NCBI RefSeq assembly: GCF_030684315.1
Contig: NC_081393.1
Location: 10,489,565-10,553,564 of the forward strand
Direction: 5' to 3'
Source of the DNA: Stegostoma tigrinum
Taxonomy: Eukaryota
DNA length: 64,000 nt
The position numbers and the translations under genes were made by a program. Below the pieces are notes generated by a model. That model worked only from the letters and a program-made list of their open reading frames with translations. It was not told where the DNA came from and made no database searches. This document shows positions 1 through 63,112 of the stretch, in pieces. Within the stretch, counting starts at the first letter, position 1; every line of letters starts with the position of its first letter.

Positions 1-193
1 CAGATCAGAAGGAGGCCATTTGGCCCTTTGATGCTACTCCAACTGTCTGAGTGACCAATTCACTGAGGACCATTCTCCCATCCTTCCCCTCTGACCTTAC
101 ACATTAATCCTTCAAAGACAACAGTGTGATTCTCTTTTGATACTTCAACTGAACTAGCCTCCATCAGACCCTCAAGCATTCCAGGCCTAAATA

Positions 194-385
194 ATAAAAG
201 CAAAGTCCTGTGGATGCTGGAAATCTGAAATATCAGCAGAAATTGCTGGAGACATTGAGCAGGTCTGGCAGCATCTGTGAAGAAAGAAACAGTTAATGTT
301 CCAAGCCAATGTGACTCTTCATCAGAACTCAGTTCAGACTCAAACCTGCTGCATTTCTCCAGCGTTTTCTGTTTTTATCTCAGAT
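194..385. mobile_element. Short Penelope-end-derived non-autonomous repeat with partly inverted arms
   Basis: gatgctggaaatctgaaa...ttgctggagacattgagcaggtctggcagcatctgtg..., followed by a partial inverted copy (cctgctgcatttctccagcgttttctgtttttatctcagat). Related copies at ~9310-9405, 16575-16705, 41720-41850, 59785-59870, 62005-62090. Confidence 0.6.
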
Positions 386-2269: not shown

Positions 2270-3520
2270 GACATCCGTGGGTTAGCACCAAACTTGGGAG
2301 AGCTGTCTCACTGACTATTCAAGCTGCAGCCTGATACAGTCACACTCTGGAATGATACCTTACTGATGTCCCAGACAATACCATCACCATCCTTGAGTAT
2401 GTCCTTTCCCACTGGAAAGACAGATACAGCATTGGTGGTGACACAATGATTCACAGTCAGAAGGGAGTTGCCCCAGAATCCTCAACGATGATTCCAGACC
2501 CTAATATGTTACATGACATCAGGTCAAAGATGGGCAAGGAAGCCTCCTGCTTATTATCTCATGTTTTCTATTCTCCCCCACCCACCCATGACTGTTGGAG
2601 ATTAGTCATCCCAGCTCCAGGACGTCTGTGCAAGAATTCCTCAGGGAAATGTCCCAGCTCAACCATGAACTCCTTACTAATAAAATATCAGAAGTGAGGA
2701 TGTTTGCTGATGACTATATAATGTTAAGCATCATTTGCAACTCCTCAGATACTGAAGCAGTCTGTGTCCAAATGCAGCAAAATTGCTCAATATCCAGGTT
2801 TGGGTTGTCAAGTAATCTTCCCCAACAAGAGACACCTTAACCTTTACCCCTTGTCATTCAGTAGCATAACCATTGCTGAATTCACTACTATTAACAGGCT
2901 GGGGCGATGGTTAGCCAGAAATGGAACTGGGCCAACTACGTAAAGAGAATGGATAGAAGGGCAGGTCAGAGGTTGGGAATCCTGCAGCAAATAACTCAAC
3001 CACTTTATTCTCCAACGCTCTTCTACCTTCCTCAAGACACAAGTCAGGATTGTGATGGAACATGCCCATTTGATTAAATGAGTGCAGCACTGACAACAAT
3101 CAAGAAGCTCAACACCATCCAGGACAAAGCAGCCCAGTTGACTTGCGCCACATCCACAAGTATCCACTCACTTCTCCCTCACTGATGTACAGTGGCAGTA
3201 TTGAGTACCATTTACAAGATGCACTGCATAAATTCACCAAGGCTTTTCCAATAGCACCATCCAAACTCATTACCACAACCAGCTTGCAGGACAAGGGAGC
3301 ATCAGAGACACGAGAATATCACCACCTGCAAGTTCCTCTTCAAGCTACTCACCATCCAGAGCTCAAAATATTTTGGCATTCCTTCAGTGTCACAAGGTCA
3401 TAATCCTGGAACTCCCTCCCCAACAGCATATTGGATCCACCTATAGCAAACAGACTGCAAGCAGTGCAAGAAGCTTATCGCCTAGGCCAGCCAGCAATGT
3501 CCACATCCCACAAACAGATT
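2270..3520 (+). mobile_element. Degenerate, internally deleted CR1-group LINE (endonuclease, RT and 3' tail remnants)
   Basis: ORF 2595-2840 contains EVRMFADD. The 3' tail (ggccagccagcaatgtccacatccca) matches the LINE at 45990-48650. Confidence 0.8.
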
Positions 3521-3720: not shown

Positions 3721-4945
3721 CTGAAAGAAAGAAAGTACACTTGATACAAAGAATGAGAAAAGATGTGTGACCCAGGGGCATTGTTGCTTTAACTAAATAT
3801 CCTCATCCTCCTTACAAGGAAAATGTTTCAATATTGTAAGTTGTATTCTTTAATACGAAGGCAAAGATATTTCAACATCTCTAAATGGAGGCCTTTTAGT
3901 TTCAGATCTTGGAAAGAAGGTTGTTTCATATGATTCAAACTCTAAAGATGAAATTGTATGACTGTTCTCAGTTGTAAAGGAAAATAAAGTGATTTAACTT
4001 CCAAATGTGTGCTTTTCAGCTCACCTATTCCTCTGGCTTGCAGCACAATTAAGGAGTTTTACGCTGTCGTTACTGTTTGAGAGAGGAGCTGAAGCACTTA
4101 GAACCTAGCTTGCTCTTTAGTCTAGAATTAGAGGTAGAGGTCTCGAAACCAGCAACCTCAGGACTGAGGTCACGCCTGATTTCAGATACTGCTTGTTTGG
4201 GGTTGAGCGGTTCAAAGCCATGCCTAGTTGGGTGGGGTCATGGGTCGTACATGATAGATCAGCACGTGAAGCCATTAACTCATCTGGAGCCACACCATGT
4301 TGATGCAGCACCTAGCTGAGTTGTTTAGTGTAGTTTTTACTTCAAAAGTTATGCAATTAAATTTGATGCATGCAGCATTAAAAAAGCATGTGATTTTCGG
4401 AAAATTCTCTTATTTGGAAAGCCAGGTTTGAGACACAAGCTGCAGCCAAGAGAAAGGAGTAACATAAAGTGCAGCCTTGGACAAAGAGCTCAGAACTCCC
4501 CTGCTGAAGCTCTATTCACAATTCAGACAGCATAGGTACAACAGATCCATTATAAATTCTCTGTTGTAACAATGGCAGAAAATGTGGAAAGGAAGTTGTT
4601 GAATCCCTGGGAGACATCTCAACTTTAGAAACCATGACCTCAGTTGAAGGGCCAACAAGAGGTCCAGTTCAACCTTCAGCACTGTCTGTCTTATTTTATT
4701 TGATGAGAGACAAGGTTCAGCCACAGATACTCTGTTACTTCCGGTCATGACTGGTGATGTGCTGTGTCGGAACCCGAAAGCTGAAGGCCAAGCTTGATGC
4801 CTTAATGTGTTGTACCAGACATGGTATAACATATTAAGGCACCATGCAGAGTATGGTACACTTTTGGTCCTTGCAGCTTGGTACCTCGTGTGTTTGAATT
4901 TACCCAGATTCAATTGCTTCCTGGTGCAAAAGCTTGCTCACTTAC

Positions 4946-5300
4946 CTGTTGGTCAGTGGTCCAATTAATGGATTCACAAGGAGCTGCACAATTGCTTTTG
5001 AAGCTAATAACAAGCCAACACGAACATTTTCCTCTGTCAAAAATGATTTGTTCCTGCCACAGTGGGCTCTTCCAGTGCCTGGCCTCAGGCTTGGGATGGC
5101 ACCTTCAGTTGTGTTTCTCCATTTAATTTCTTCAGTCTCATTGTCAGCTCCTGCAGTGGTCTTGGTTCTAAATTGGCCACCACTGGAATACAAGAGGTGA
5201 GGGGAGAGAGTGGAGGGCAGAGCTGGAGGCTGCCTTGATGATGCTGACCCATTCATTTCTGAGTTCTGTATTTCATACAAGAAACTGGGGATGATGGGGA
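4946..5300 (-). CDS. SLC18A1: SLC18A1 coding exon 2 (355 nt): end of TM1, glycosylated luminal loop, TM2
   Basis: VPIIPSFLY...EENVRVGLLLASKAIVQLLVNPLIGPLTNR. Acceptor tgtgtttcag, donor gtaagt. N-x-S/T sequons NGS, NET, NTT, NKS and a loop Cys. Confidence 0.96.
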
Positions 5301-5956
5301 CTGAAACACAAAGAATGATCAATTAATACTGAGTGAAGATTATAATTCTCTCAGCTGAGATATAGCCTCCCTGTTTAATCCCCTGTTTTGTGGCCACTAA
5401 ATAGTCAAGCAATAGCCTCTGTGATAATGGTTCAGCTCTCTGAAATCTCCCGGTGCAAAGAGCAATGGCTGTTTGTAACAACATAGAGATCATGTTTGGA
5501 GATACGACTGGAGAAATCTAACTGCACATTTTTACACATTCAGAGTTACAGTGTGGGAAGCAGCACGATAACATAAAATGTCCAGTTGATCATATGTCCT
5601 GCCAGCCAAAAACTGTGAATTGCAAACTCAATTTCCCACATTGTTTCTTCTGGAAGCTGACACGCAAGTTGATCAAATAGATACTGAGACAAAGCAAAGG
5701 AACATTGTTTCTAAAAACTGGAAAATAACTCCATTTGGACGTTCCCATAGTGGGTCAGGACAGACACTGTGTAAGGTCTGAGATCATATTGCCCAGCTGG
5801 CCTCTTGGCTGCAAGTGTGGCAAACATGAACAGAGGAGGAGGATGGATATCGCTTACTGTTCACAATGGTGTTAGGAGTTGGGTAGAGTTTGTGAGAAAC
5901 TCAACAGAACAGTCTGTGAGATACCTATCAGTGGGTGACAAACTCAGCATATAATG

Positions 5957-6830
5957 CCATAAGACACAGGAGCAGAATTAGGCCATTCAGCTCATTGAAT
6001 CAACTCTGCCATTTGATCATGGCTCATATGTTTCACAACACTATTCTCATGGCTTCTCATTCATAACCTTTGATCCCCTTACTCATCAAAAGCCTATCTA
6101 TCTTTATCTTAAATACACTCCATCACTTGACTTCCACAGCCCTCTGCAGCAATAAGTTCCACAGATTCACCATGATCTAGCTGAAGAAATCCTCCTCATC
6201 TCAGATCTAAAGGGTTGTCACTTTGAAGCTGTGCCCTCGGGTCCTCATCTCTCCTTCATGTTGAAACATTTTCTCCATGTCCACTCTATCCAGGCCTCTC
6301 AGTATTATGTAAGCTTTAATCAGATTCCCCCCTCATCCTTCTCAACTTCATCAAATACAAACTGACAGTCCTCAATCACTCCTCATATGATAATCCTTTT
6401 GTCCCCGGAATCATTTTTGTAAACCTGCTCCGGACACCTTCTAATGCCAACACATTCTTTTCGAGATACGGGCCCAAAACCCCTCACACTGTACCAAGTA
6501 CGGTCTGGCCAGAGCCTTATACAATCTCAGCAGTATCTCTCTCCTCTTGTAGTCGCGCCCTCTTGAAATGAATGCTCATGTTGCATTTGCCTTTCTGACT
6601 GACAACTGAACCTTAATGTTAAGAGAATCCTGACATAGGAAGTTCCTTTGAGCTTTAGATTTCCAAAGCCTTTTCCCATTTAGAAAATAGTTCATGCCTC
6701 TATTCTTCTGACCAAAGTGCATAATCTCACACTTCCCCATATTGTATTCCATCTGCCACTTCTTTCTCCACTCTTGTAGCCTGTCCAAGTTCTGGATGTG
6801 TCCTCAACACTACCTGCCCCTCCATCCACT
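5957..6830 (-). mobile_element. CR1-type LINE 3' fragment
   Basis: Minus ORF DRLQEWRKKWQMEYNMGKCEIMHFG is typical of the CR1 RT C-terminal region; CR1-like 3' end near 5957. Confidence 0.85.
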
Positions 6831-7071
6831 TGGAAATTTAGCATTAATGCCCTCAGTTCCTTTGTTCATATTGTGAATGGAAATTTTGAATTGTCCAACA
6901 GTGTTAGAAACATAATCCATCAATGGGTGAGAAATCTGACCCTCAGTGCATGGGAAACTCAGGCCTTTGACTCTCTTCCAGCCTCTGGCCTTTTGTATTG
7001 TTCTCCTCTTCTGTTGACCAGAATGATATTTTTAAACAGTTCTCCACAAATAATATTAGACTTGAACTTAC

Positions 7072-7198
7072 CAATGACAGTTAGCAGGGTGTAGTCCAGA
7101 AAAAGTGCAATATAAACAATAACTAGCACCATTGTCCTGGACTGCCTTGCCTTTCTCAGCCATTGCCACCCTTTGCATTCCTTTCCCCATGTCACCAT
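7072..7198 (-). CDS. SLC18A1: SLC18A1 first coding exon (127 coding nt; exon acceptor at 7225, so an upstream 5'UTR exon is implied)
   Basis: MVTWGKECKGWQWLRKARQSRTMVLVIVYIALFLDYTLLTVI-G|gtaagt resembles the VMAT N-terminus and TM1. Upstream acceptor gttgtttcag. Location next to ATP6V1B2 supports SLC18A1 rather than SLC18A2. Confidence 0.92.
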
Positions 7199-9479
7199 TT
7201 TGATCCCTGGAGAGCTGTTGTTGACCTGAAACAACCCGGTACAGAGATTGTTAGAGGCATGTGACCCCAGCCATAGTTCCTAACTCACAGAATGAATTAC
7301 CGCACAATAATGGTGTGCATTGAGACAAATCTAACCACAACTTTTCATTCTGAGCTGAGATTGTCACATCCCCACACTTAACAGAAATCTATGCACAGAG
7401 TTAAGTGATGGCTGGGATTCAGGTTAGACAATCCATCAATAATCCTCAAAATGTTTTGTTTTGTTCTGCATCAGCAGTATCAAGATCAATCGCTTCTTGT
7501 TGTGTAATTTCCATTTCCGTTTTTCAGGAACAGTCGATGTTGACGGGAGCTGGTATGGTGAGTAGAGCCACCATTCATGTAGTTAATGTGTTATGACTCA
7601 AGCAAGAGCGGAACAGTTGAGCCAGACAAAAACTGCAGTGTTACCGAAATAATACGGAGCTGAAAGTTCCATTCAACCACTGCTTGCTGCATGCAAAGGC
7701 AAGTGACTCATAATCTATGTGAGCTACGAGCTCAGGAAACCTGCCTGAATTGACTCTTACTGGCCAATTCTCAGACCTCTCCACCTTTAACGTTCTTCAC
7801 TTTGCAAACCTCAGTTGGAAGCTGAGATCACCTCATATGGATAGGTCAATCTAATTCATCTGATATCCTGTTTGATGGCTTCACACCCCTCATACATATT
7901 GTGAAACTTCAAATTTAGACTGATGAATAATTGGGTAAATTGGAAGAAAGTGGAAGTTAGGTCAATTCCAGACAAATTGAAAACTAAAATATTCCAGAAC
8001 ACAAAGGATAGACTTGAAAAATAAGAGTTTTAACATCATGGTAACTTGTTGTCTGTTTCTAAGAATGAACTCATTAAATCTCAAAGCACACATCCTACCT
8101 GCACCAGCTGTTTGGGGGATATATCCAATTGAAATTGAGACATATTCTTTAAAGTACTGTGAATATTTCACTTAACTATGTTTAGCAACTTCAGTCTTCA
8201 AAGTTAGTTCTGAATTGGCTTTCATCATTCTTTCAAACAGTGTATTCCAGATTAGATAAAACTATCAATAGTTTCTTCCTTTTTCCCATGGTTGTTTTGA
8301 AAATTATGTGAAATCCATCTCATCTAGTCACTGGCTATGAAAACAGTTTTGATCTATCTCATCTCATTCATCATTTGAACAGGTCTATTAACTATGCCAT
8401 TACACTTCCTGATAGCGAGCAGGCTAAATCTAAAACTGACTTTACAATCGTCACCATCTCTATATTTGTAAAACACTTTAATTTTATTTCAGGATTCACA
8501 TCATTTAGCAATCTTGCACTTACCTCTTCCACAATGTCTTGAGTGCCTTGAATTAGTAAAGTGTTGTCGCTCTAGTGTGGTCTGCAGAGTTTCAATTCAG
8601 ACAGTTATAAAGAGGAATGATTTTGTGAGTAGAACATGACAAAGGATCCCAAAAAATATGTGGTCTATAAAGCTGTGGTTCCCTGCGTCAGTGCAGGAGG
8701 AAATGAATTAAGTATTTTCATTTGATTTGCAAAGAATAACAAGAGTTTAACATTACTGTGATTTGTTTGCTCAAGATAATCTCTGTTCAAACCAATGCAC
8801 CTTGTTTTCCCACATGTGGTTTGTGAAGGGATGAAGCATCTAGATGAGACAATTGTTGAAAGCTTAAAATTTATGATGACAAGTTTATGTTTTCCAGAAA
8901 ATAGCCATTGAAGAAAACAAAACAAGGAAAAACTGCATGTCACACAACAATTATGCCAGGGATGTTACAATTTTAGTTCATAATAAGAATTCAAACAGGG
9001 TCTGTCAAGGTGCAGACAAATTATTCCAGACCACATTTAAAATCAAGCAAAGGTATACTCTGGGAAAGCTAACAAAAGATGGAAATCATAATCACTTGCC
9101 GTTGATTATTGTTGGCAATAATCTGTGAATTATTAACTGTAGATTTGCCCAGTGTTCCATAATTGTTGTTTTGGCTATGTTTAAATGCAGAATCAACCTC
9201 ATATTCTCTTGTATAACCTAATGTCACTAAATATCCCCATGCAGGGATTTCAAGGTGAAGCCTCTGAGGTATATAAACCGAAGTATATGAACCCAGCTAC
9301 CATCAGTTATGACGAAGGGTTACTGGACTGAAATGTTAACATTGATTTTTTCTTCACAAATGCTGCCAGACCTGTTGAGCATTTCCAGCAACTTCTATTT
9401 TTGTTGCCTTGAAGGTATCAGCTGCTTTGACCATTTGCTAGAATTGTACTGATTCTCAGCGGTCATCCTCTCTCATTTA

Positions 9480-10150: not shown

Positions 10151-10262
10151 CTGAAGAAGGTTGCAGACCTGAAACATCAGCCTTCCTGCTCCTCTGATGC
10201 TTCCTGGCCTGCTGTGTTCCTCCAGCTCCACAGCTTGTTATCCCAAATCTGCATGTTTGCTG
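10151..10262 (+). mobile_element. Penelope-end fragment carrying a hammerhead-like core
   Basis: CTGAAGA-AGGT-tgcag-ACCT-GAAAC-ATC followed by ccttcctgctcctctgatgct...ggcctgctgtgttc, the same end seen at 12770, 52760, 56932 and 61400. Confidence 0.7.
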
Positions 10263-11919: not shown

Positions 11920-12862
11920 ATCACCCGCAACAGAAGTAAGAACAGAGTCCCTCAGCCCTCACATACCACCCCACCAACCTCTGCATCCAACACATCATCC
12001 TCCGCCACTTCCACCACCTTCAATCTAACCCCACCACCAAAGAGGTATTTCCCTCCCCACCCCCATTTGCCTTTCATAGGGACCACTCACACAGCAACTC
12101 CCTTGTCTGCTCCATACTCCCCACCAACCCCACCACACCCGGCACCTTTCCCTGCAACTACAGGAGGTGCTACACCTGCCCCAACACCTCATCTCTGTCC
12201 AAGACTCCAAGCAATCTTTTCAAATCTGACAGCAATTCACCTGTATGCACCCCTCCCCCACAACCTGGTCTTCTGTATCCTTTGTTCCTGATGTGGTCAC
12301 CTGTACATTGGTAAGACAAGCGCAGACTCGGTGGCCGATTCATGCCACATCTGAGCTCTGTATGCTATAATTAACTACACTTCCTAGTTGCCAGCCACTT
12401 CAACTCCCCCTCCCTCTCCCTGGATGACATGTCCATCCTGGCCCTCCTCCAGTGTCACAATGATGCCACACTCAAACTGGAGGAACACCTCATCTTCTGC
12501 CTCGGATCTCACAGCCTGATGGCCTCAACATAGAATTCACCAGTTTCAAAATCTCCCCACCCCTGCCTCAATCCATGTCCAACCCTCCCTCTTATCCCTG
12601 CCTCCTTGACCTGACCCAACCTGTCCATCTTCTTTCTCACCTACCTGCCCCACCCTTCCTATTCACCATTCTCCACTGCTCCTTGCCTGCATCCACCTAC
12701 CACCGTCCCACTTACCTTCCCCCAGCACCAGCCCTGATTTATTTCTGAGTTCCCTTCCCCCTCCTCAGTCCTGATGAAGGGTGTAAACCCAAAAAGTCGA
12801 CAACCTCTGCTCCTCTGATACTGCCTGACCGGCTGAGTTCCTCCAGCTCCACACAGTATCGA
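11920..12862 (+). mobile_element. Penelope-like element 3' fragment (degenerate GIY-YIG endonuclease and terminal repeat)
   Basis: Degenerate NLVFCILCS*CGHLYIG motif; collinear with the better-preserved copy at 52075-52853. Confidence 0.85.
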
Positions 12863-13232
12863 CTATATTCTTAAAGTGTTCTGACTGGGCAGAGAGTGCA
12901 CAGTGACTGCACTTGAAGCTTGGCTTTATAGCTCTTCCTTTATGACCCTGTTATTCTCGCTTGCTGTCTCTCCCTTTCTGAGTCTCTTGTTTTGTTTTGT
13001 TTTGCTCTTGTTTCTAAATTTCTTCACCCCATGATTGGGAACTTCCACTTATCCTGGCTCTTAAATTAACTCCAGATATCCTGAATCATTTTCATCCTTG
13101 TGGTGACAATTTTTAATTTGACCAACCAGGGATCAGGTAGATGGCTGTAGCTGATCTTACATACTTCTGTCATGCCCGTTGTAGCTAAGTTTGTGTCTTC
13201 AAGGCTTTTACATTTTAAGCTTTTGTATCTTG

Positions 13233-16224: not shown

Positions 16225-16830
16225 AAACAGCAAATCCTAGTATTCTGCCTGCCATTCCACAAGCACTGTACCAACTTTGCAACAACCACCCAGTGAAAGT
16301 ATTTTCAGCCTGCTGTGGAATGACATTAGAACCAGAGGCTCTTATTGTTCATTGTAGCACAGATAAACAATAATAAGAGGAAAGGTTTATGATAAATAAG
16401 TTTACTTTCAACACAGGTACTTCAGTGATTGGCTGAATTACAGCCACTTCACATTGTGCCTTGTACGTTTGTGTGTTTCAAATTTACAATCCTGATCTAA
16501 AGTTCAGTTGCAAGAAAATGTTAAGTTCTCCCTTAATGAAAACTTTTTTTTAAAAAATCATGTTTTAGACAATCATCTGTGTGTGCTGGAAATCTGAAAC
16601 AGCAGGAAATTGCTAGAGAAACTGAACAGGCCTGGCAGGATCTGTGGGGAGAAACAGAAAACCATAGTTTAACTGTTTCGAGTCCAGTGACCTTTCCACA
16701 GAAGTTGTGAAGTGTTTTGTGGGGGTGCTTAAAAATTTGCCTCATTTCATTTTCAGTCTTTGCCCTGCTCATATAGCTGTTTAGGACAAGGGGCAGGCCC
16801 TCAGGCCCAAATTAAAATTGAGAATTAGCT

Positions 16831-17133
16831 GGGGCGGTATGATGGCATAGTGGTTAGAACTGATACCTCACAGTGCCAAGGACCTGAGTTCAATCTAAGC
16901 TCAGGTAATTTTCTGTGTGGAGTTTGCACATTCTCCCCATGTCTGCGTGGGTTTCCTCCCACAGTCCAAAGATGTGCAGACTAGGTGGATTGTCCATGCT
17001 AAATTGCCGATAGTGTTCAGGGATGTGTAGATTAGGTGGGTTATAGGGGGATGGGTCTGGATGGGATGCGCTGAGAATCTGTGTGGACTTGTTGGGCAGA
17101 AGGGCCTGTTTGCACTCTGTCGGGATTCTATGA
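16831..17133 (+). mobile_element. HE1-like tRNA-derived V-SINE
   Basis: A-box-like tggcatagtggttag, B-box-like gagttcaatc, V-domain tgtgtggagtttgcacattctcccc, HER1-like tail gaagggcctgttt. Confidence 0.9.
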
Positions 17134-17149: not shown

Positions 17150-17500
17150 AGGACAGCGACAGGCACATGCGTACAGCGGCAGCACCAGGAGCCGCATTAG
17201 GCGCGTGCGCAGTCGGCGTTTTGCCGGCAGTGGGCGGTCGGCCCGTGAGGGAGATTGCGCTGTAGCTTCCCCCTGCCGCTTGGGAGCGAGAGACAAGATG
17301 GCGACGAAGGGAATCGGGAGAATGGTGAATGGAGCCATGGGCGATATTACAGGCTCGGGGAGCCGACAACATGCTCAGGCGGTCAGCAGGGACTACATGT
17401 CGCAGCCGCGGCTCAGTGAGTGTTTCACGGTGTGAGAGTGGGTGACGGGGAGTGGAGGTGAGATGAGATGATGGGGGATCGTGCGGCCCTGTTTGGGGGA
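17150..17500 (+). promoter_or_regulatory. CpG-island promoter of ATP6V1B2 with NRF1-like and YY1-like motifs
   Basis: Strong local CpG enrichment. GCGCGTGCGCA at 17201-17211, GCACATGCGT at 17163-17172, and CAAGATGGCG overlapping the ATG. Confidence 0.8.
17298..17415 (+). CDS. ATP6V1B2: ATP6V1B2 exon 1: MATKGIGRMVNGAMGDITGSGSRQHAQAVSRDYMSQPRL
   Basis: Kozak aagATGG; AVSRxYxSQPRL motif; donor gtgagt. Confidence 0.97.
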
Positions 17501-17985: not shown

Positions 17986-18302
17986 TTAGATTAGATTAGA
18001 TTTCCCACAGTGTGGAAACAGGCCCTTCGGCCCAACAAATCCACACCGCCCCTTGGAGCATCTCACCCACACCCATCCCCCTATAACCCACACACCCCTG
18101 AACACTACGAACAATTTAGCATGGCCGATCCACCTAGCCTGCACATCTTTGGACTCTGGGAGGAAACCAGAGCACTTGTAGGAAACCCATGCAGACACGG
18201 GGAGAATGTGCAAACTCCACACAGACAGTCACACGAGGCTGGAATTGAACCTGGATCCCTGGCGCTGTGAGGCTCAGTGGTTAGCACTGCACCATGCCTC
18301 CC
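17986..18302 (-). mobile_element. HE1-like V-SINE
   Basis: Reverse-complement copy with a (TAGAT)n tail at 17986. Confidence 0.9.
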
Positions 18303-20924: not shown

Positions 20925-20980
20925 CGTACAAGACTGTATCTGGTGTCAATGGGCCCTTGGTAATCCTGGACCAAGTGAAG
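20925..20980 (+). CDS. ATP6V1B2: ATP6V1B2 exon 2 (56 nt): TYKTVSGVNGPLVILDQVK
   Basis: tttgcag acceptor, gtacag donor, conserved peptide. Confidence 0.98.
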
Positions 20981-31653: not shown

Positions 31654-32009
31654 GCAGCATGGTGGCCAACACTGCTGCCTCACAGTGCCAGAGACTCATG
31701 TTTGATTCCATCCTTAGACGACTGTCTGTGTGAGGTTTGCATGTTCTCTCTGTGTGTGGGTTTCCTCTGGATGCGCTGGTTTCCACCTGCAGTCCAAAAA
31801 TGTGCAGATTAGGTAATTGGCTATGCTAAATTGCCCATAGTATCCAGGGATGTGTAGTTTAGATGGATTAGCCATGGGAAATGCTGGATTATGGGGGATT
31901 GGGTTGGGGGTGATGGGAATGTGTAGGGTTGCTCTTCAAAGGATCGGTGTGGACTAAATGGGCTGAATGATTGCTTTTGCACTGTAGGGTTCCGCAATTC
32001 TATTCTATG
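31654..32009 (+). mobile_element. HE1-like V-SINE in ATP6V1B2 intron 7
   Basis: actgctgcctcacagtgccagagac...gtctgtgtgaggtttgcatgttctc...ttctattctatga. Confidence 0.85.
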
Positions 32010-35210: not shown

Positions 35211-35537
35211 ATAGAATCCCTACAGTGTGGAACAGGCCATTCGGTCCAACAAATCCTCACCAACTCTCCAAGGAGCATCCCACCGTATCCCTTGCCATCT
35301 TGCATTTTTTTCCCAATGGCTACTCCACCTAACCTAAACATACCTGGACACTATGGGAAATTTAGCATGGTCAATCCACCTGCACATGTTTGGACTGTGG
35401 AAGGAAACCGGAGCACCTGGAGAAAATGCACACAGATACAGGGAGAATGTGGAAACTCCAACAGACAGTCACACGAGAATGGAGTTGAACCCAGGTTCCT
35501 CTTGCTGTGAGGCAGCAGTACTTACTACCATGCCACC
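35211..35537 (-). mobile_element. HE1-like V-SINE in ATP6V1B2 intron 10
   Basis: atagaatccctacagtgtggaacaggcc...tgtgaggcagcagtacttactaccatgccacc. Confidence 0.88.
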
Positions 35538-35908
35538 AGTCCTTTTGTTTGAACCCTGGAGATCAGTTATTGAACACACCAAGTCTGCTGGTGTGTTTTT
35601 AAATGAAGAGTAAATCATTTGTTTGACAAGAAACACATGTTTTTCAGTAGGCTTAAATGTTGGAAAAGTTTCAGTTTCAGTGTTCTCTTTTTAGTCTCAG
35701 CAATATCCTCTCAAGCACCAATCTCCACACTTAGGCTTCTCAGTGAGGCTTGCACAATCGTGATCATTTCACTTATGATGAATTTATGCACTTGTATACA
35801 ATACTTCCATTGAGCAAGCATTCTCCCCCTGAATCACTTTAACTAAACTTAGTTTTGTGTGAGACTTTTTTCCAGAGAGATAAGCCCTCATACTTCAATA
35901 CTCTGCTA

Positions 35909-37433: not shown

Positions 37434-37760
37434 CGGGATGACGGCATCAAGCAGCATTTATTTCCCATCCTTAATTGCCCAGAGCACAGTTAAGACTCAA
37501 CCACATTGCTGTGGATCTGGAGTCACATGTAGGCCAGACGAGGGAAGGATGGCAGTTTGCTTCCCTAAAGGACGTTAGTGAACCAGATGGGTTTTTCCAA
37601 CAATTGACAATGGATTCATGGTCACCATTTGATTCTTAATTCCAGATATTTATTGAATTCAAATTCCACCATTTGCCATGGTGGGATTTGAACCCACGCA
37701 CCCAGAACATAATCTGCCTCTCTGGATTAACAGTCCAGTCCATGAGGCAATCACCTCCCG
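37434..37760 (-). mobile_element. tRNA-derived SINE sharing its tail with the CR1-group LINE family
   Basis: Reverse complement of the copy at 62765-63112. Confidence 0.85.
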
Positions 37761-49463: not shown

Positions 49464-49798
49464 TCATGGACAGATTCATATGCAGCCAGCAGGATGTAAA
49501 GTGCCACATCAAAAGATATGTTTTTCAAGCTTGCATTGAGCTTAATTGGAACACTGTGGTAAGCCAAGACAGGACATAACCATGTGCAAGCAAGTTGAAG
49601 AATTGAAATAGCAAGCTACCCAAAGCTCAGGGTTGTGATTGCAGTCTGAACAGAGGTATTCTGCAAGGAGATTACTCAATCTGCATATTTTTCTCCACAG
49701 TTTGGAACTAACCACATTATAAGCAGAAAATACAATGGCTGAATTGAAACAAATGTATTTAAAGTTTTGGCAAAGATCTGTAGCTCTGTTTGTGGATG

Positions 49799-50330
49799 AG
49801 GTTGTTGCCTTGGTCACCAAGCTGGCTTGTTCTCATTTGGATGTTTTGTCATCGTGGGTAACATCGTCAGTGGATGATGTTATTCTACTCCACTAGGAAT
49901 TTATACTGTATGTCCGTTATTGTGAGTCACGTCATTTCCAGATTTGATCTGTATGGGTTTGGGTGGAGAACCATGCCTCTAGGAATTCCTGTGCATGTCC
50001 AAGTTTGACTTGTGTTACTATGGTTACTTTGTCCCAGTTGATGGCCTTCATTGCCTGAATGGACCAATATTCAGGAGTGTCTGTCATGCCATTTTGCGGT
50101 TCTCCACCTGTGATGCAGTCAACAAGCATATAGAATTGGACCCCATATACAAACCCATACAGATCAAAACCAGAAATGACATTAATCACTATAACAGACC
50201 CGACAGTATAAATTTCAAGTGGAGTAGAATAACACCGCTTCATCAGAGGCTCCACTGGTGAAGTCACCTAGCATGGTGACAAAACGTCTGAATGAGAACA
50301 AGCCAGCTCAATGAGCAAGTCAACAACCTG
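49799..50330. mobile_element. Second Penelope-like family: two 3' ends in inverted orientation
   Basis: Minus peptide INWDKVTIVTQVKLGHAQEFLEAWFST; plus peptide FST..VNKHIELDPIYKPI. 49799-49972 is an inverted copy of 50098-50330. Confidence 0.75.
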
Positions 50331-52075: not shown

Positions 52076-52853
52076 ACATAGTTTCACCTGCACATCTGCC
52101 AATGTGGTATACTGCATCCACTGTACCCGGTGTGGCTTCCTCTACATTGGGGAAACCAAGCGGAGGCTTGGGGACTGCTTTGTAGAACACCTCCGCTCGG
52201 TTAGCAATAAACAACTGCACCTTCCAGTCGCGAACCATTTCCACTCCCACTCCCATTCTTTAGATGACATGTCCATCATGGGCCTCCTGCAGTGCCACAA
52301 TGATGCCACCCGAAGGTTGCAGGAACAGCAACTCATATTCCGCTTGGGAACCCTGCAGCCCAATGGTATCAATGTGGACTTCACCAGCTTCAAAATCTCC
52401 CCTCCCCCCACTGCATCCCAAAACCAGCCCAGTTCGTCCCCTCCCCCCACTGCACCACACAACCAGCCCAGATCTTCCCCTCCACCCACTGCAACCCAAA
52501 ACCAGTCCAACCTGTCTCTGCCTGCCTAACCTGTTCTTCCTCTCACCCATCCCTTCCTCCCACCCCAAGCCGCACCTCCATCTCCTACCTACTAACCTCA
52601 TCCCACCTCCTTGACCTGTCCGTCTTCCCTGGACTGACCTATCCCCTCCCTACCTCCCCACCAATACTCTCCTCTCCATCTATCTTCTTTTCTCACCATC
52701 TTCGGTCCGCCTCCCCCTCTCTCCCTATTTATTCCAGAACCCTCACCTCATCCCCCTCTCTAATGAAGGGTCCAGGCCCGAAACGTCAGCTTTTGTGCTC
52801 CTGAGATGCTGCTGGGCCTGCTGTGTTTTTCCAGCCTTACATTTCATTACCTT
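52075..52853 (+). mobile_element. Penelope-like element 3' part with an uninterrupted GIY-YIG endonuclease frame
   Basis: FTCTSANVVYCIHCTRCGFLYIGETKRRLGDCFVEH...VANHF...EQQLIFRLGTLQPNGIN; pyrimidine-rich 3' region and hammerhead-like end. Confidence 0.93.
52400..52516 (+). repeat. Three ~39-bp C-rich tandem units inside the Penelope element
   Basis: Variants of cctcccccactgcatcccaaaaccagcccag repeated three times. Confidence 0.85.
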
Positions 52854-55231: not shown

Positions 55232-55548
55232 CATAGATCAGAGAATCCCTGCAGTGTCAAAACAGGTCCTTCGGCCCAACAAGTCCACACCGACTCTTGG
55301 AGCATCCCCTTTAACTCACCTAAGCTACACATCCCTGAACACTATGGGCAATTTAGCATGACCAATTCACCTAGCCTGCACATCTGTAGACTGTGGGAGG
55401 AACCCGGAGCAAACCCACACAGACTGTGCAGGGAGAATGTGCAGAGAGAATGTGCAAATTCCACACAGTCACCCGAGGGTGGAATTGAACCCAGTTCCCT
55501 GGCGCTGTTGAGGCAGCAGTGCTAACCACTGAGCCACCATACTGCCCC
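55232..55548 (-). mobile_element. HE1-like V-SINE
   Basis: Reverse-complement match to the other HE1-like copies. Confidence 0.88.
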
Positions 55549-55559
55549 AATATCTCGTA

Positions 55560-56849: not shown

Positions 56850-57024
56850 TTATCTTCTCCTCTTTATCCATCTTCGATCCGCCTCCCCCTCTCTCCCTAT
56901 TTATTTCAGAACCTCTCTCCATCCCCCTTTTCTGATGAAGGGTCGAGGCCAGAAACATCAGCTCTTGTGCTCCTAAGATGCTGCTTGGCCAGCTGTGTTC
57001 ATCCAGCTTCACACTTTGTTATTA
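56850..57024 (+). mobile_element. Penelope terminal fragment (same family as 52680-52853)
   Basis: ccatcttcgatccgcctccccctctctccctatttatttcagaacc...ctgatgaagggtcgaggccagaaacatcagc. Confidence 0.88.
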
Positions 57025-58933: not shown

Positions 58934-59233
58934 GTTAGCACTGCAGCCTGACAGTGCCAGGGACCCAGGTCCGATTCCAGCCTCGGGCGACTGTCTGTGT
59001 GGAGTTTGCACATTCTCCCCGTGTCTGTGTGGGTTTCCTCCGGGTGCTCCGGTTTCCTCCCACAGTCCAAAGATGTGCAGGCTCGGTGGATCGGCCAGGC
59101 TAAATTGCCCATAGTGTTCAGGGATGTGTGAATTATAGGGGAATGGATCTGGGTGGGATGCTTCAAGGGGTGGTGTGGACTTGTTGGACCGAAGGGCCTG
59201 TTTCCACACTGTGGGGAATCTAATCTAATCTAA
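58934..59233 (+). mobile_element. HE1-like V-SINE, well preserved
   Basis: Complete V-domain and (AATCT)n tail. Confidence 0.92.
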
Positions 59234-60935: not shown

Positions 60936-61276
60936 TTCACAGTTTCCAAATGTTAACTGGCAAGTATATTTGTCTTCCCTGGAACTGAAACAGTTAAGTG
61001 GAATGGATAGGGTCAGTTGAGAAAAACTGTCCAGGAGGAGCGGGCCATAGCACAAAAATTGAAGCTTTACCTCTCAGGTGTGAGTCCTGGAAACCCTTCT
61101 GTCTGCAAAGAATGACAGAAGACTTGAACTTTCTTCTGTGAGCAACAATTAATGTCAGATTAAATGAGAGTTTAAACCCTAAATTGATAGATTCTTGTTA
61201 ACCAAAGGTAGCAGCTGGGCAAATGTGGGCAGATTCTGGTTGCATATCAGGTATAAAGTCAATGATGGCAGAACAG

Positions 61277-61468
61277 AGATAGTAGGAACTGCCGATGCTG
61301 GAGAATATGAGATAACACAGTGTGAGGCTGGATGAACACAGCAGGCCAAGCAGCATCAGAGGAGCAGGAAAGCTTGATGTTTCAGGTCAGGACCCATCTT
61401 CAGAAATTTCTGCAGAAGGGTCCCGACCAAAACGTCACGCTTTCCTGCTCCTCTGAAGCTGCTTGGCC
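61277..61468. mobile_element. 192-bp palindromic non-autonomous element with two hammerhead-like motifs and a 14-bp TSD
   Basis: TGATGGCAGAACAG at 61263-61276 and 61469-61482; symmetry centre CAGAAATTTCTG at 61401-61412. Confidence 0.88.
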
Positions 61469-62178
61469 TGATGGCAGAACAGGCTTGAGAAGCTAAATGA
61501 CCTCCTGTTGTTTCTTGTTTTGCTGTGTCTGATAGATTTGCTGTGTGCTCCAAGAAATGTGAGCTATTTTCATGAGAATACAACATACCCTTCTCATTGA
61601 ATTGGTTTATACCAAGGTAGTGTGATCAAACATTATCACCGTATCGCAATGTCATGAGTAGATTTTGATCACATCTAGAATTTATTATTCTTGGCAAATT
61701 TCTATCGTTAATATTGCCCAGGATATAACCGTGAGATTCCACGCCAACTAAACGTGCTGCTGACAGTTTATCCGTACCATAACAGTACTTGCTCATCTCA
61801 GCATGTTTCTTGTCCATCTCTGTACTACAGTAGAAGTGATCATGCAGCATTACAAGTTATGCATATCGAATACATATGCAGCATTTCACTATGAGCTTCA
61901 CTTTGCACTTTCTAATGGAGAGAAAATAAATATTTGAAGAAAAATAGAGAACTGTGGAAAGAACAAGGTTCATTTTGGATAGCGTGAATGAAGAACCTGA
62001 AAAGATTCAGAAAATGCTGAAGAAATCCAGTAGTTCTGACAGCATCTGTGGAGAATCATCTTTGCCTTTGTTTCAGATTTCCAGCATCTTGGTTGTATAT
62101 TAGCCTGAATAGATTATTGGCTTCAAATTTCTCTGTTTTCACAAGGCCATAAGATATCTAGACTCCTACAGTTCTGAC

Positions 62179-62288
62179 TTCTTGCTGATCTCCAATTAAA
62201 ATTACTCTGCTATTCATGGACATTCCATGAATATGTCCATTCCATGTCCATGAATAGCAGAGTAATTTTAATTGGAGATCAGCAAGAA
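62179..62288. repeat. Perfect 45-bp inverted repeat with a 20-bp spacer
   Basis: 62179-62223 is the exact reverse complement of 62244-62288. Confidence 0.97.
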
Positions 62289-62764: not shown

Positions 62765-63112
62765 TAGGCAATTGCTTTGTGATATTATCGCTGGACTGTA
62801 AATCCAGAGACCTAGGTAATGTTCTAGGGACCTGGGCTTGAATTCTGCCACAGCAGATGGTGGAATTTGAATTCAATAAATATCTGGAATTCAGAGTATA
62901 ATGATGACAATGAATCCATTGTAGATTATCGGAAAAAAACCATTTTATTCCCTAATGTCCTTTAGGGAAGGAAACTGCCATCCTCACCTGGTCTGGCCTA
63001 CATGAGACTCCAGAACCACAGCAATATGGTTGACTCTTAACTGCCGTCTGGGCAATTAGGGATGGGCAATAAATGCTGGTCTTAGCCAGTGACATCCTGT
63101 GAATGAGTAAAA
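62765..63112 (+). mobile_element. tRNA-derived SINE with CR1-group LINE tail
   Basis: B-box-like gggcttgaattctgcc; tail gggcaattagggatgggcaataaatgctgg, shared with the LINE end at ~48582-48615. Confidence 0.85.

Follow-up and report, generated by a model that had tools for sequence, protein, structure and literature searches.

A window of 64,000 nt from Stegostoma tigrinum, the whole stretch of DNA analysed here, carries at 12768..12801 a short motif with the architecture of a hammerhead ribozyme, and it raises the question of what such motifs are, how they spread and what their copies record of the life of their carriers. Inspection of the sequence found every string of the six motifs listed by the initial annotation exactly where it had placed them, and further motif copies were identified at 9305 (+), 47277 (+), 49870 (-), 61403 (-) and 61410 (+). 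Judged by their sequence, these motifs are almost certainly minimal type I hammerheads in the pseudo-LTRs (pLTRs) of several Penelope-like element (PLE) families. The motif itself is of a known kind, the min-HHR published for PLE pLTRs (PMC4209133); new here are the junction statistics, which give exact positions for a test. The features of the focal copy are listed below.

11940..12509, + strand: decayed remains of the linker (CX4CXXC) and the GIY-YIG endonuclease from a 5'-truncated, Neptune-type PLE of family B (tblastn, frameshifted translation)
12736..12742, + strand: TATA-like box of the pLTR, first base altered in the focal copy, 31 nt before the initiator-like A (sequence)
12764..12770, + strand: initiator-like motif that shares bases with the 5' strand of helix I, with A12767 as predicted +1 (sequence, and 5'-end pile-up in related families)
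12768..12801, + strand: focal minimal type I hammerhead of family B with G12->A and C15.2->A, predicted cut after 12798
12799..12868, + strand: pLTR downstream of the cut site, as far as the nearer of its two 3' end points (about +64 to +68; 30 family-B copies aligned)

Helix I of the focal copy is formed by 12768-12770 (5' strand) and 12799-12801 (3' strand). Core positions C3 and A9 lie at 12771 and 12777, followed by an inserted A at 12778 and by a 4-bp helix II (12779-12782/12787-12790) whose loop is GTAA; the two lesions are G12->A at 12791 and C15.2->A at 12795. The location of the motif in the initial annotation is confirmed and the extent of its stem II is not, the base after A9 being the unpaired insertion of min-HHRs. 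The GIY-YIG remnant upstream is 54.5% identical to the family-A ORF (tblastn, E 2e-51). The TATA-like box, a putative promoter element, has the same spacing as in long copies of families A, B and C. The focal copy is predicted to be a dead relic of an old family, and a role in a host gene was rejected because G12 is lost and family B is old.

Long family-A copies contain RT motifs, a CX4CXXC linker and a GIY-YIG domain in one frame. Pfam analysis of family A returned RVT_1 (E 0.004) and GIY-YIG (E 0.0097), both below the curated cut-offs; among four frames from the window three gave nothing and the fourth, an unrelated retroelement frame, gave weak RVT_1 only. The CX4CXXC linker occurs in family A and in the focal copy and is absent from family D. 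With RT, a CX2-5CXXC linker and GIY-YIG at the C terminus, family A and the focal family-B copy fit the Neptune clade, for which this linker is part of the definition and which shares it with Nematis (PMC8557442), and families C and E were placed in the same clade by tail similarity. Family D, without a zinc-finger linker and with an ORF that begins at helix II, fits the Penelope/Poseidon clade; its ORF opens at the helix II base, as in PAc, the Poseidon element of Anolis. Only Neptune and Poseidon are listed for vertebrate PLEs in the available part of a preprint. The 'several Penelope-like families' proposed earlier thus become Neptune-type A, B, C and E and Poseidon-type D.

In tandem family-A copies the ORF starts ~140 nt past the cut site. 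The motif follows the GIY-YIG domain on its 3' side and precedes the start of the next ORF; it is therefore in the pseudo-LTR, ending one unit and opening the next. Copies of family A end at two points in the tail, ~+64 and ~+100, and such two-point 3' ending is a known PLE tail (PMC11167929). Just before the family-A start codon, L264:7588-7621 holds a branch-point-like motif, a pyrimidine tract and an AG, possibly a 5' UTR intron of the kind found in D. virilis Penelope.

The other motif-bearing copies in the window are given below.

193..329, - strand: short copy of family E that begins with the first helix I base, with G before it; A13->G
9271..9405, + strand: family-E copy with a TATAAA box upstream; motif at 9305 (+), C3->A
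10151..10242, + strand: short family-C copy beginning at C3
47229..47395, no single strand: fold-back family-C copy whose sense arm (47277+) begins inside helix II; 12-bp target-site duplication
49757..50329, no single strand: two Poseidon-type ends of family D in inverted orientation, with motifs at 49870 (-) and 50255 (+)
52083..52850, + strand: young family-A copy with GIY-YIG domain, 3' UTR, motif at 52760 with G5->A, and tail
56851..57022, + strand: pLTR piece of an older family-A subfamily; motif at 56932 with an intact core, C11.1->A and a decayed CpG in helix III
61275..61473, no single strand: head-to-head family-C pair; motifs at 61403 (-) and 61410 (+); 12-bp target-site duplication

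Both arms of the pair at 61275..61473 begin 4 nt before C3. As the initial annotation had stated, each window copy bears at least one change, in the core, a helix or the palindrome. The copies are dispersed, and the window contains no run of at least two consecutive units each with a full motif, the arrangement that defines a non-LTR retrozyme. Outside the window, L264:7219-8434 (G000:C13) alone has this arrangement: it is a tandem array with a period of 440 and 2.7 copies that are 97% alike, with an intact motif per unit. Its unit joins the first ~55 ORF codons to the 3' UTR, a retrozyme-like deletion derivative, and an inverted unit lies just upstream of the array.

Analysis of the window also revealed features of other kinds. 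A repeat pair at 37452-37749 and 62791-63078 adjoins a tRNA-like head that carries an insertion of 21 nt (26.7 bits for tRNA in Rfam) and is probably a SINE; 62181-62286 is a long near-perfect inverted repeat, MITE-like; and a dispersed repeat of ~300 bp has six copies (16830-17133, 17986-18297, 31657-31881, 35211-35538, 55238-55549 and 58934-59233). Exon-like frames at 4942-7279 (-), 17300-17430 (+) and 20930-20980 (+) lie head-to-head with the focal copy between them. These frames presumably resemble a vesicular monoamine transporter and V-ATPase subunit B; Pfam analysis of them gave no match.

Window and sample counts of the motif were made with a descriptor permitting an inserted base after A9. 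With up to two core changes, stem II of at least 4 and stem I of at least 2, the window gave 9 matches against 0.9 (maximum 3) in 20 shuffles; with up to one core change 4 against 0.05; and with a perfect core 1 against 0.0-0.15. In 80 evenly spaced 10-kb stretches, 55 perfect-core matches were found against 1.7 in 3 shuffles. Across the 3.2-Gb genome the strict core pattern has 184,129 matches and its reversed-pattern control 226, which is ~1 core-intact match per 17 kb; the density is 57.6 per Mb genome-wide and 62.5 per Mb in a sample of 120 stretches. A descriptor without the inserted base missed most copies and gave no excess over shuffles in three of four settings, and Rfam covariance models run on the window reported no hammerhead family at E<=10. 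Rfam thus overlooks a ribozyme-like motif that ranks among the most abundant in such a genome.

Alignments of the 30 best genome matches each for families A, B, D and E show the full core CUGANGA...GAAA and UH at family level, with A as the majority base at G12 of family D through CpG decay. An unpaired base between 9 and 10.1 and a G10.1-C11.1 pair are present, and 14 of 16 rows have GC or GU at pair 18-35. Helix III is palindromic at 15.2-16.2 and without a loop in all families, and ACGT or its CpG-decay products occur in each of them, so the ancestral core with a palindromic ACGT helix III holds. Helix I is AGTC/GACT in family B, 4 bp in E, 2-5 bp in D and just 2 bp in A; helix II is 4 bp in A-C. 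Two side observations concern these helices. In family A, helix II with its CTAG loop (L121:1481-1492) forms a near-palindrome of 12 nt that could allow helix II, too, to pair between two copies, as cofolding predicts; family B has a GNRA-type loop. In family D, the sequence before the core (window 50229-50263) is complementary to CUGAUGA and could mask the core, and since a TATAAAT box lies 48 nt before C3, the masking strand would fall at the transcript start.

The proposed covariation of stem II was borne out, helices I and II showing compensatory change between families. In 16 real copies 86.8% of cells were paired (67.0+-2.6 in shuffled controls), and double-sided changes numbered 27 where the shuffles gave 9.3, a result that none of 500 shuffles equalled; slid-register controls paired at 19-45%. 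Eight of nine pairs had a double-sided change, a count also reached by 21 of 500 shuffles. The 16 rows were hand-picked and are related and the structure was pre-specified by the analyst; the covariation therefore supports the fold and is no proof of it. Minimum-energy folding of the A and E motifs did not return the catalytic fold, as is expected for such a motif, and was not used as support.

Decay of the copies follows the CpG course suggested earlier: all three CpGs are kept in only 2 of 67 exact-arm family-B copies. The expectation that most copies are inactive is right for the window copies and the old families and wrong for family A, in which the core survives in 45 of the 59 long copies sampled, and core and palindrome together in 32 of 59. 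Non-CpG changes in family A are as frequent in the core (19/590) as in the tail (87/3304; p=0.41). Selection on inserted family-A copies was rejected, since the core decays as quickly as the tail; such even decay places selection on source elements, not on inserted copies. By their sequence, the motif copies spread as passive, decaying copies.

The 5' ends of copies were counted in 1.2 Mb, taken as 120 evenly spaced stretches with 312 tail-bearing copies, and edge copies were dropped (leaving 180 of 182 in A and 104 of 107 in B+C). Families B and C were pooled because their labels mixed. The references were colinear; family E has no colinear reference, and its figure comes from an earlier census whose library included rearranged copies. 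Of 180 sampled family-A copies, 45 start inside a 10-nt interval about the helix I 5' strand. In this family 110 copies extend to -26 from the cut site; 45 of them terminate at -35..-26, and among the 65 that pass this zone only four stop over -100..-36, a ~40-fold fall. In B+C, 40 of 63 stop at the same zone, and in family E the earlier census gave a peak of 18/102 at -35..-31; family D showed no pile-up among 23 copies. Helix I begins at -30 to -34 from the cut site, and the 5' ends scatter across ~12 nt. Rearranged copies often restart at the same zone.

A TATA-like box lies 34-35 nt before C3 in 95 of 104 long copies of A, 10 of 15 of B and 2 of 3 of C, and family E has TATAAA at about the same distance. 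The family-A start zone is thus ~30 nt behind the TATA-like box, at an initiator-like motif. Four bases before C3 stands a motif that we take to be initiator-like or TCT-like. From these positions, the helix I start of the short copies is likely to be the capped 5' end of the element RNA, and such copies probably derive from uncut transcripts. The openly available parts of the literature yielded no report of PLE 5' ends at helix I or of a cap-derived G, and the passages available from the PAc paper (PMC11167929) describe no 5' ends at helix I. Against this reading stand the TATA-less internal promoter described for D. virilis Penelope (PMC2377424), the missing pile-up in family D and the scatter of the 5' ends; the 2-bp helix I of family A also counts against the explanation as a whole.

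An extra G is a mark of capped full-length L1 insertions (PMC11702581). The base before the predicted A1 start is, genome-wide, G at 7,023 junctions and A or T at 3,459, with a templated C-run at 71,802; the background expectation for an extra base is G in 26% of non-C. The first 100 of 6,683 junctions listed at this start were split by eye, with 64 element-derived junctions, where G is often templated, and one duplicate removed; the 35 junctions to unrelated flanks had G in 19, A in 6 and T in 10 (p=4e-4). In family E the non-C untemplated junctions among the first 100 of 12,231 had G in 13 of 19, A in 4 and T in 2 (p=1.5e-4). Perfect head-to-head junctions at the helix I start number 1,099 against 0 at a blunt control site, and a base copied from the cap would supply the overlap missing at such junctions.

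The same pile-up could come from stalling of the reverse transcriptase or a joining preference at a C-rich tract, or from a splice junction, with the G added by fold-backs or terminal-transferase bias. The tract upstream is C-rich and gives G-rich cDNA; 10 of the 19 flank G junctions read AG, the complement of CT, as short fold-back also yields; and non-inverted junctions at the predicted +1 in the 1.2-Mb sample have no G excess (A 5/14, E 2/6). Families B and E have a pyrimidine tract and AG directly before C3, and in D. virilis Penelope helix I is where an intron ends (PMC4209133); a splice junction may therefore play a part. These explanations are nevertheless unlikely: the stop rate drops just upstream and remains low, families with differing upstream sequence stop alike behind differently spelled TATA-like boxes, and fold-back in family E would add T, yet G leads 13 to 2. 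The flanks of short copies are also mutually unrelated and therefore contain no common upstream exon.

A second, weaker pile-up occurs at the cut site, where the census has 20 ends at 0..+9 against 5 at -10..-1 (p=0.004). We lean slightly against taking it as a footprint of cleavage in vivo; cut templates and a stall before the folded motif explain the step about equally well. The cut site has 771 perfect palindromic head-to-head junctions, compared with 55 at -5, 154 at -16, 25 at +27 and 344 at +9. The 100 flank junctions listed out of 11,959 spread from -4 to +9 and form no sharp peak at the cut position itself. The PAc motif cuts with its protein present and PAc inserts uncut RNA in vitro, and the available passages of the same paper contain no finding of reads ending at the cut site (PMC11167929). 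Dimer cleavage is attributed to Lunse et al. in passages of a review (PMC6765202).

In the published model the ribozyme is the main template processor, cutting both unit ends so that a ligated circle is copied (PMC4209133). The step of 20 against 5, the excess of 771 junctions at the cut over those at -5, -16 and +27 and the existence of the 440-bp array with a motif per unit (L264) all agree with it. We nevertheless regard it as very improbable here, since a circle offers no reason for the larger peak, the stop at helix I, and since the step would equally be expected if copying stalled just 3' of the folded motif. The +9 site has its 344 junctions at just 2 bp of overlap, so the cut-site zone is broad; this breadth, the listed flank junctions without a sharp peak at 0 and the in vitro insertion of uncut PAc RNA also speak against the circle. 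A reading in which cleavage has been lost and the motif survives as a binding or promoter element serving the PLE protein or polymerase II is hardly credible. In its favour, the most abundant family, A, has a 2-bp helix I and a 1-bp helix III, the modelled minimum-energy folds of A and E lack the catalytic one and Naiad elements are reported to propagate without canonical hammerheads (PMC8557442). Against it, Neptune- and Poseidon-type families with differing helices retain the catalytic positions, and PAc supplies the example of a cutting motif noted above.

Overall, our analysis makes it probable that PLE min-HHRs spread as passive, decaying copies and that Neptune-type elements have a capped start at the first bases of helix I. 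In the proposed mechanism, polymerase II would start at these bases in Neptune-type source elements, and the PLE protein would prime reverse transcription in the tail, as measured for Anolis PAc (PMC11167929). Copying would run to the RNA 5' end, where a stop would leave a 95-130-bp stub or a fold-back pair and the cap would often be copied as an extra G. Long copies would arise from a tandem read-through template or from a jump of the enzyme to another 3' end. The majority of templates would stay uncut. Cleavage would be occasional, carried out by a ribozyme dimer assisted by protein and joined via the ACGT palindrome, and would remove the capped 32-nt leader or end the upstream unit.

More tentatively, the genome might be a fossil read-out of the PLE cycle, with a TATA/initiator start, the hammerhead as the first 32 nt of a capped mRNA, a strong-stop cDNA primed internally in the tail that ends up as a stub or switches template in the manner of LTR elements, and a minority of templates cut at GUC, so that the ribozyme would decap its own RNA in the germ line. 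If true, PLE hammerhead cleavage would be evidenced in vivo, and removal of the cap would emerge as a switch between message and template. The tens of thousands of junctions give two exact testable positions, the predicted capped start and the cut site, and a young family with long open frames suits the assay.

The short copies recall the minus-strand strong-stop DNA of LTR elements, a short first product of priming near the 5' end; LTR elements are a different class, and here the product is deduced from genomic junctions alone. LINE-1 with its extra 5' G is similar in cDNA that runs to a capped 5' end with G added (PMC11702581), and differs in the same two respects. Compared with PAc (Frangieh et al. 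2024, PMC11167929), the two 3' end points define the tail in both, and family D shares the ATG at the helix II base and an AC-rich tail; in contrast, the family-A ORF starts ~140 nt past the cut site. Passages of Li et al. 2026 (10.64898/2026.07.22.740005) on non-LTR retrozymes, in which a promoter or transcription start is not mentioned, report tandem hammerhead units in one chondrichthyan, which the 440-bp array of L264 resembles; unlike these, the window copies are dispersed stubs without arrays and the L264 unit is an internal deletion joining ORF start to 3' UTR. The closest likeness is to the min-HHR of Cervera and De la Pena 2014 (PMC4209133), one supplement file of which does not contain the word 'shark': the type I core, the unpaired base 9/10.1, the G10.1-C11.1 pair, the palindromic 15.2-16.2, the short helix I, the many families and the mostly solo truncated copies and inverted pairs are alike. 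The differences are a helix II of 4 bp in A-C and the number of core-intact motifs, ~184,000 here against ~9,000 in X. tropicalis and ~4,000 in the coelacanth, counts made with different descriptors.
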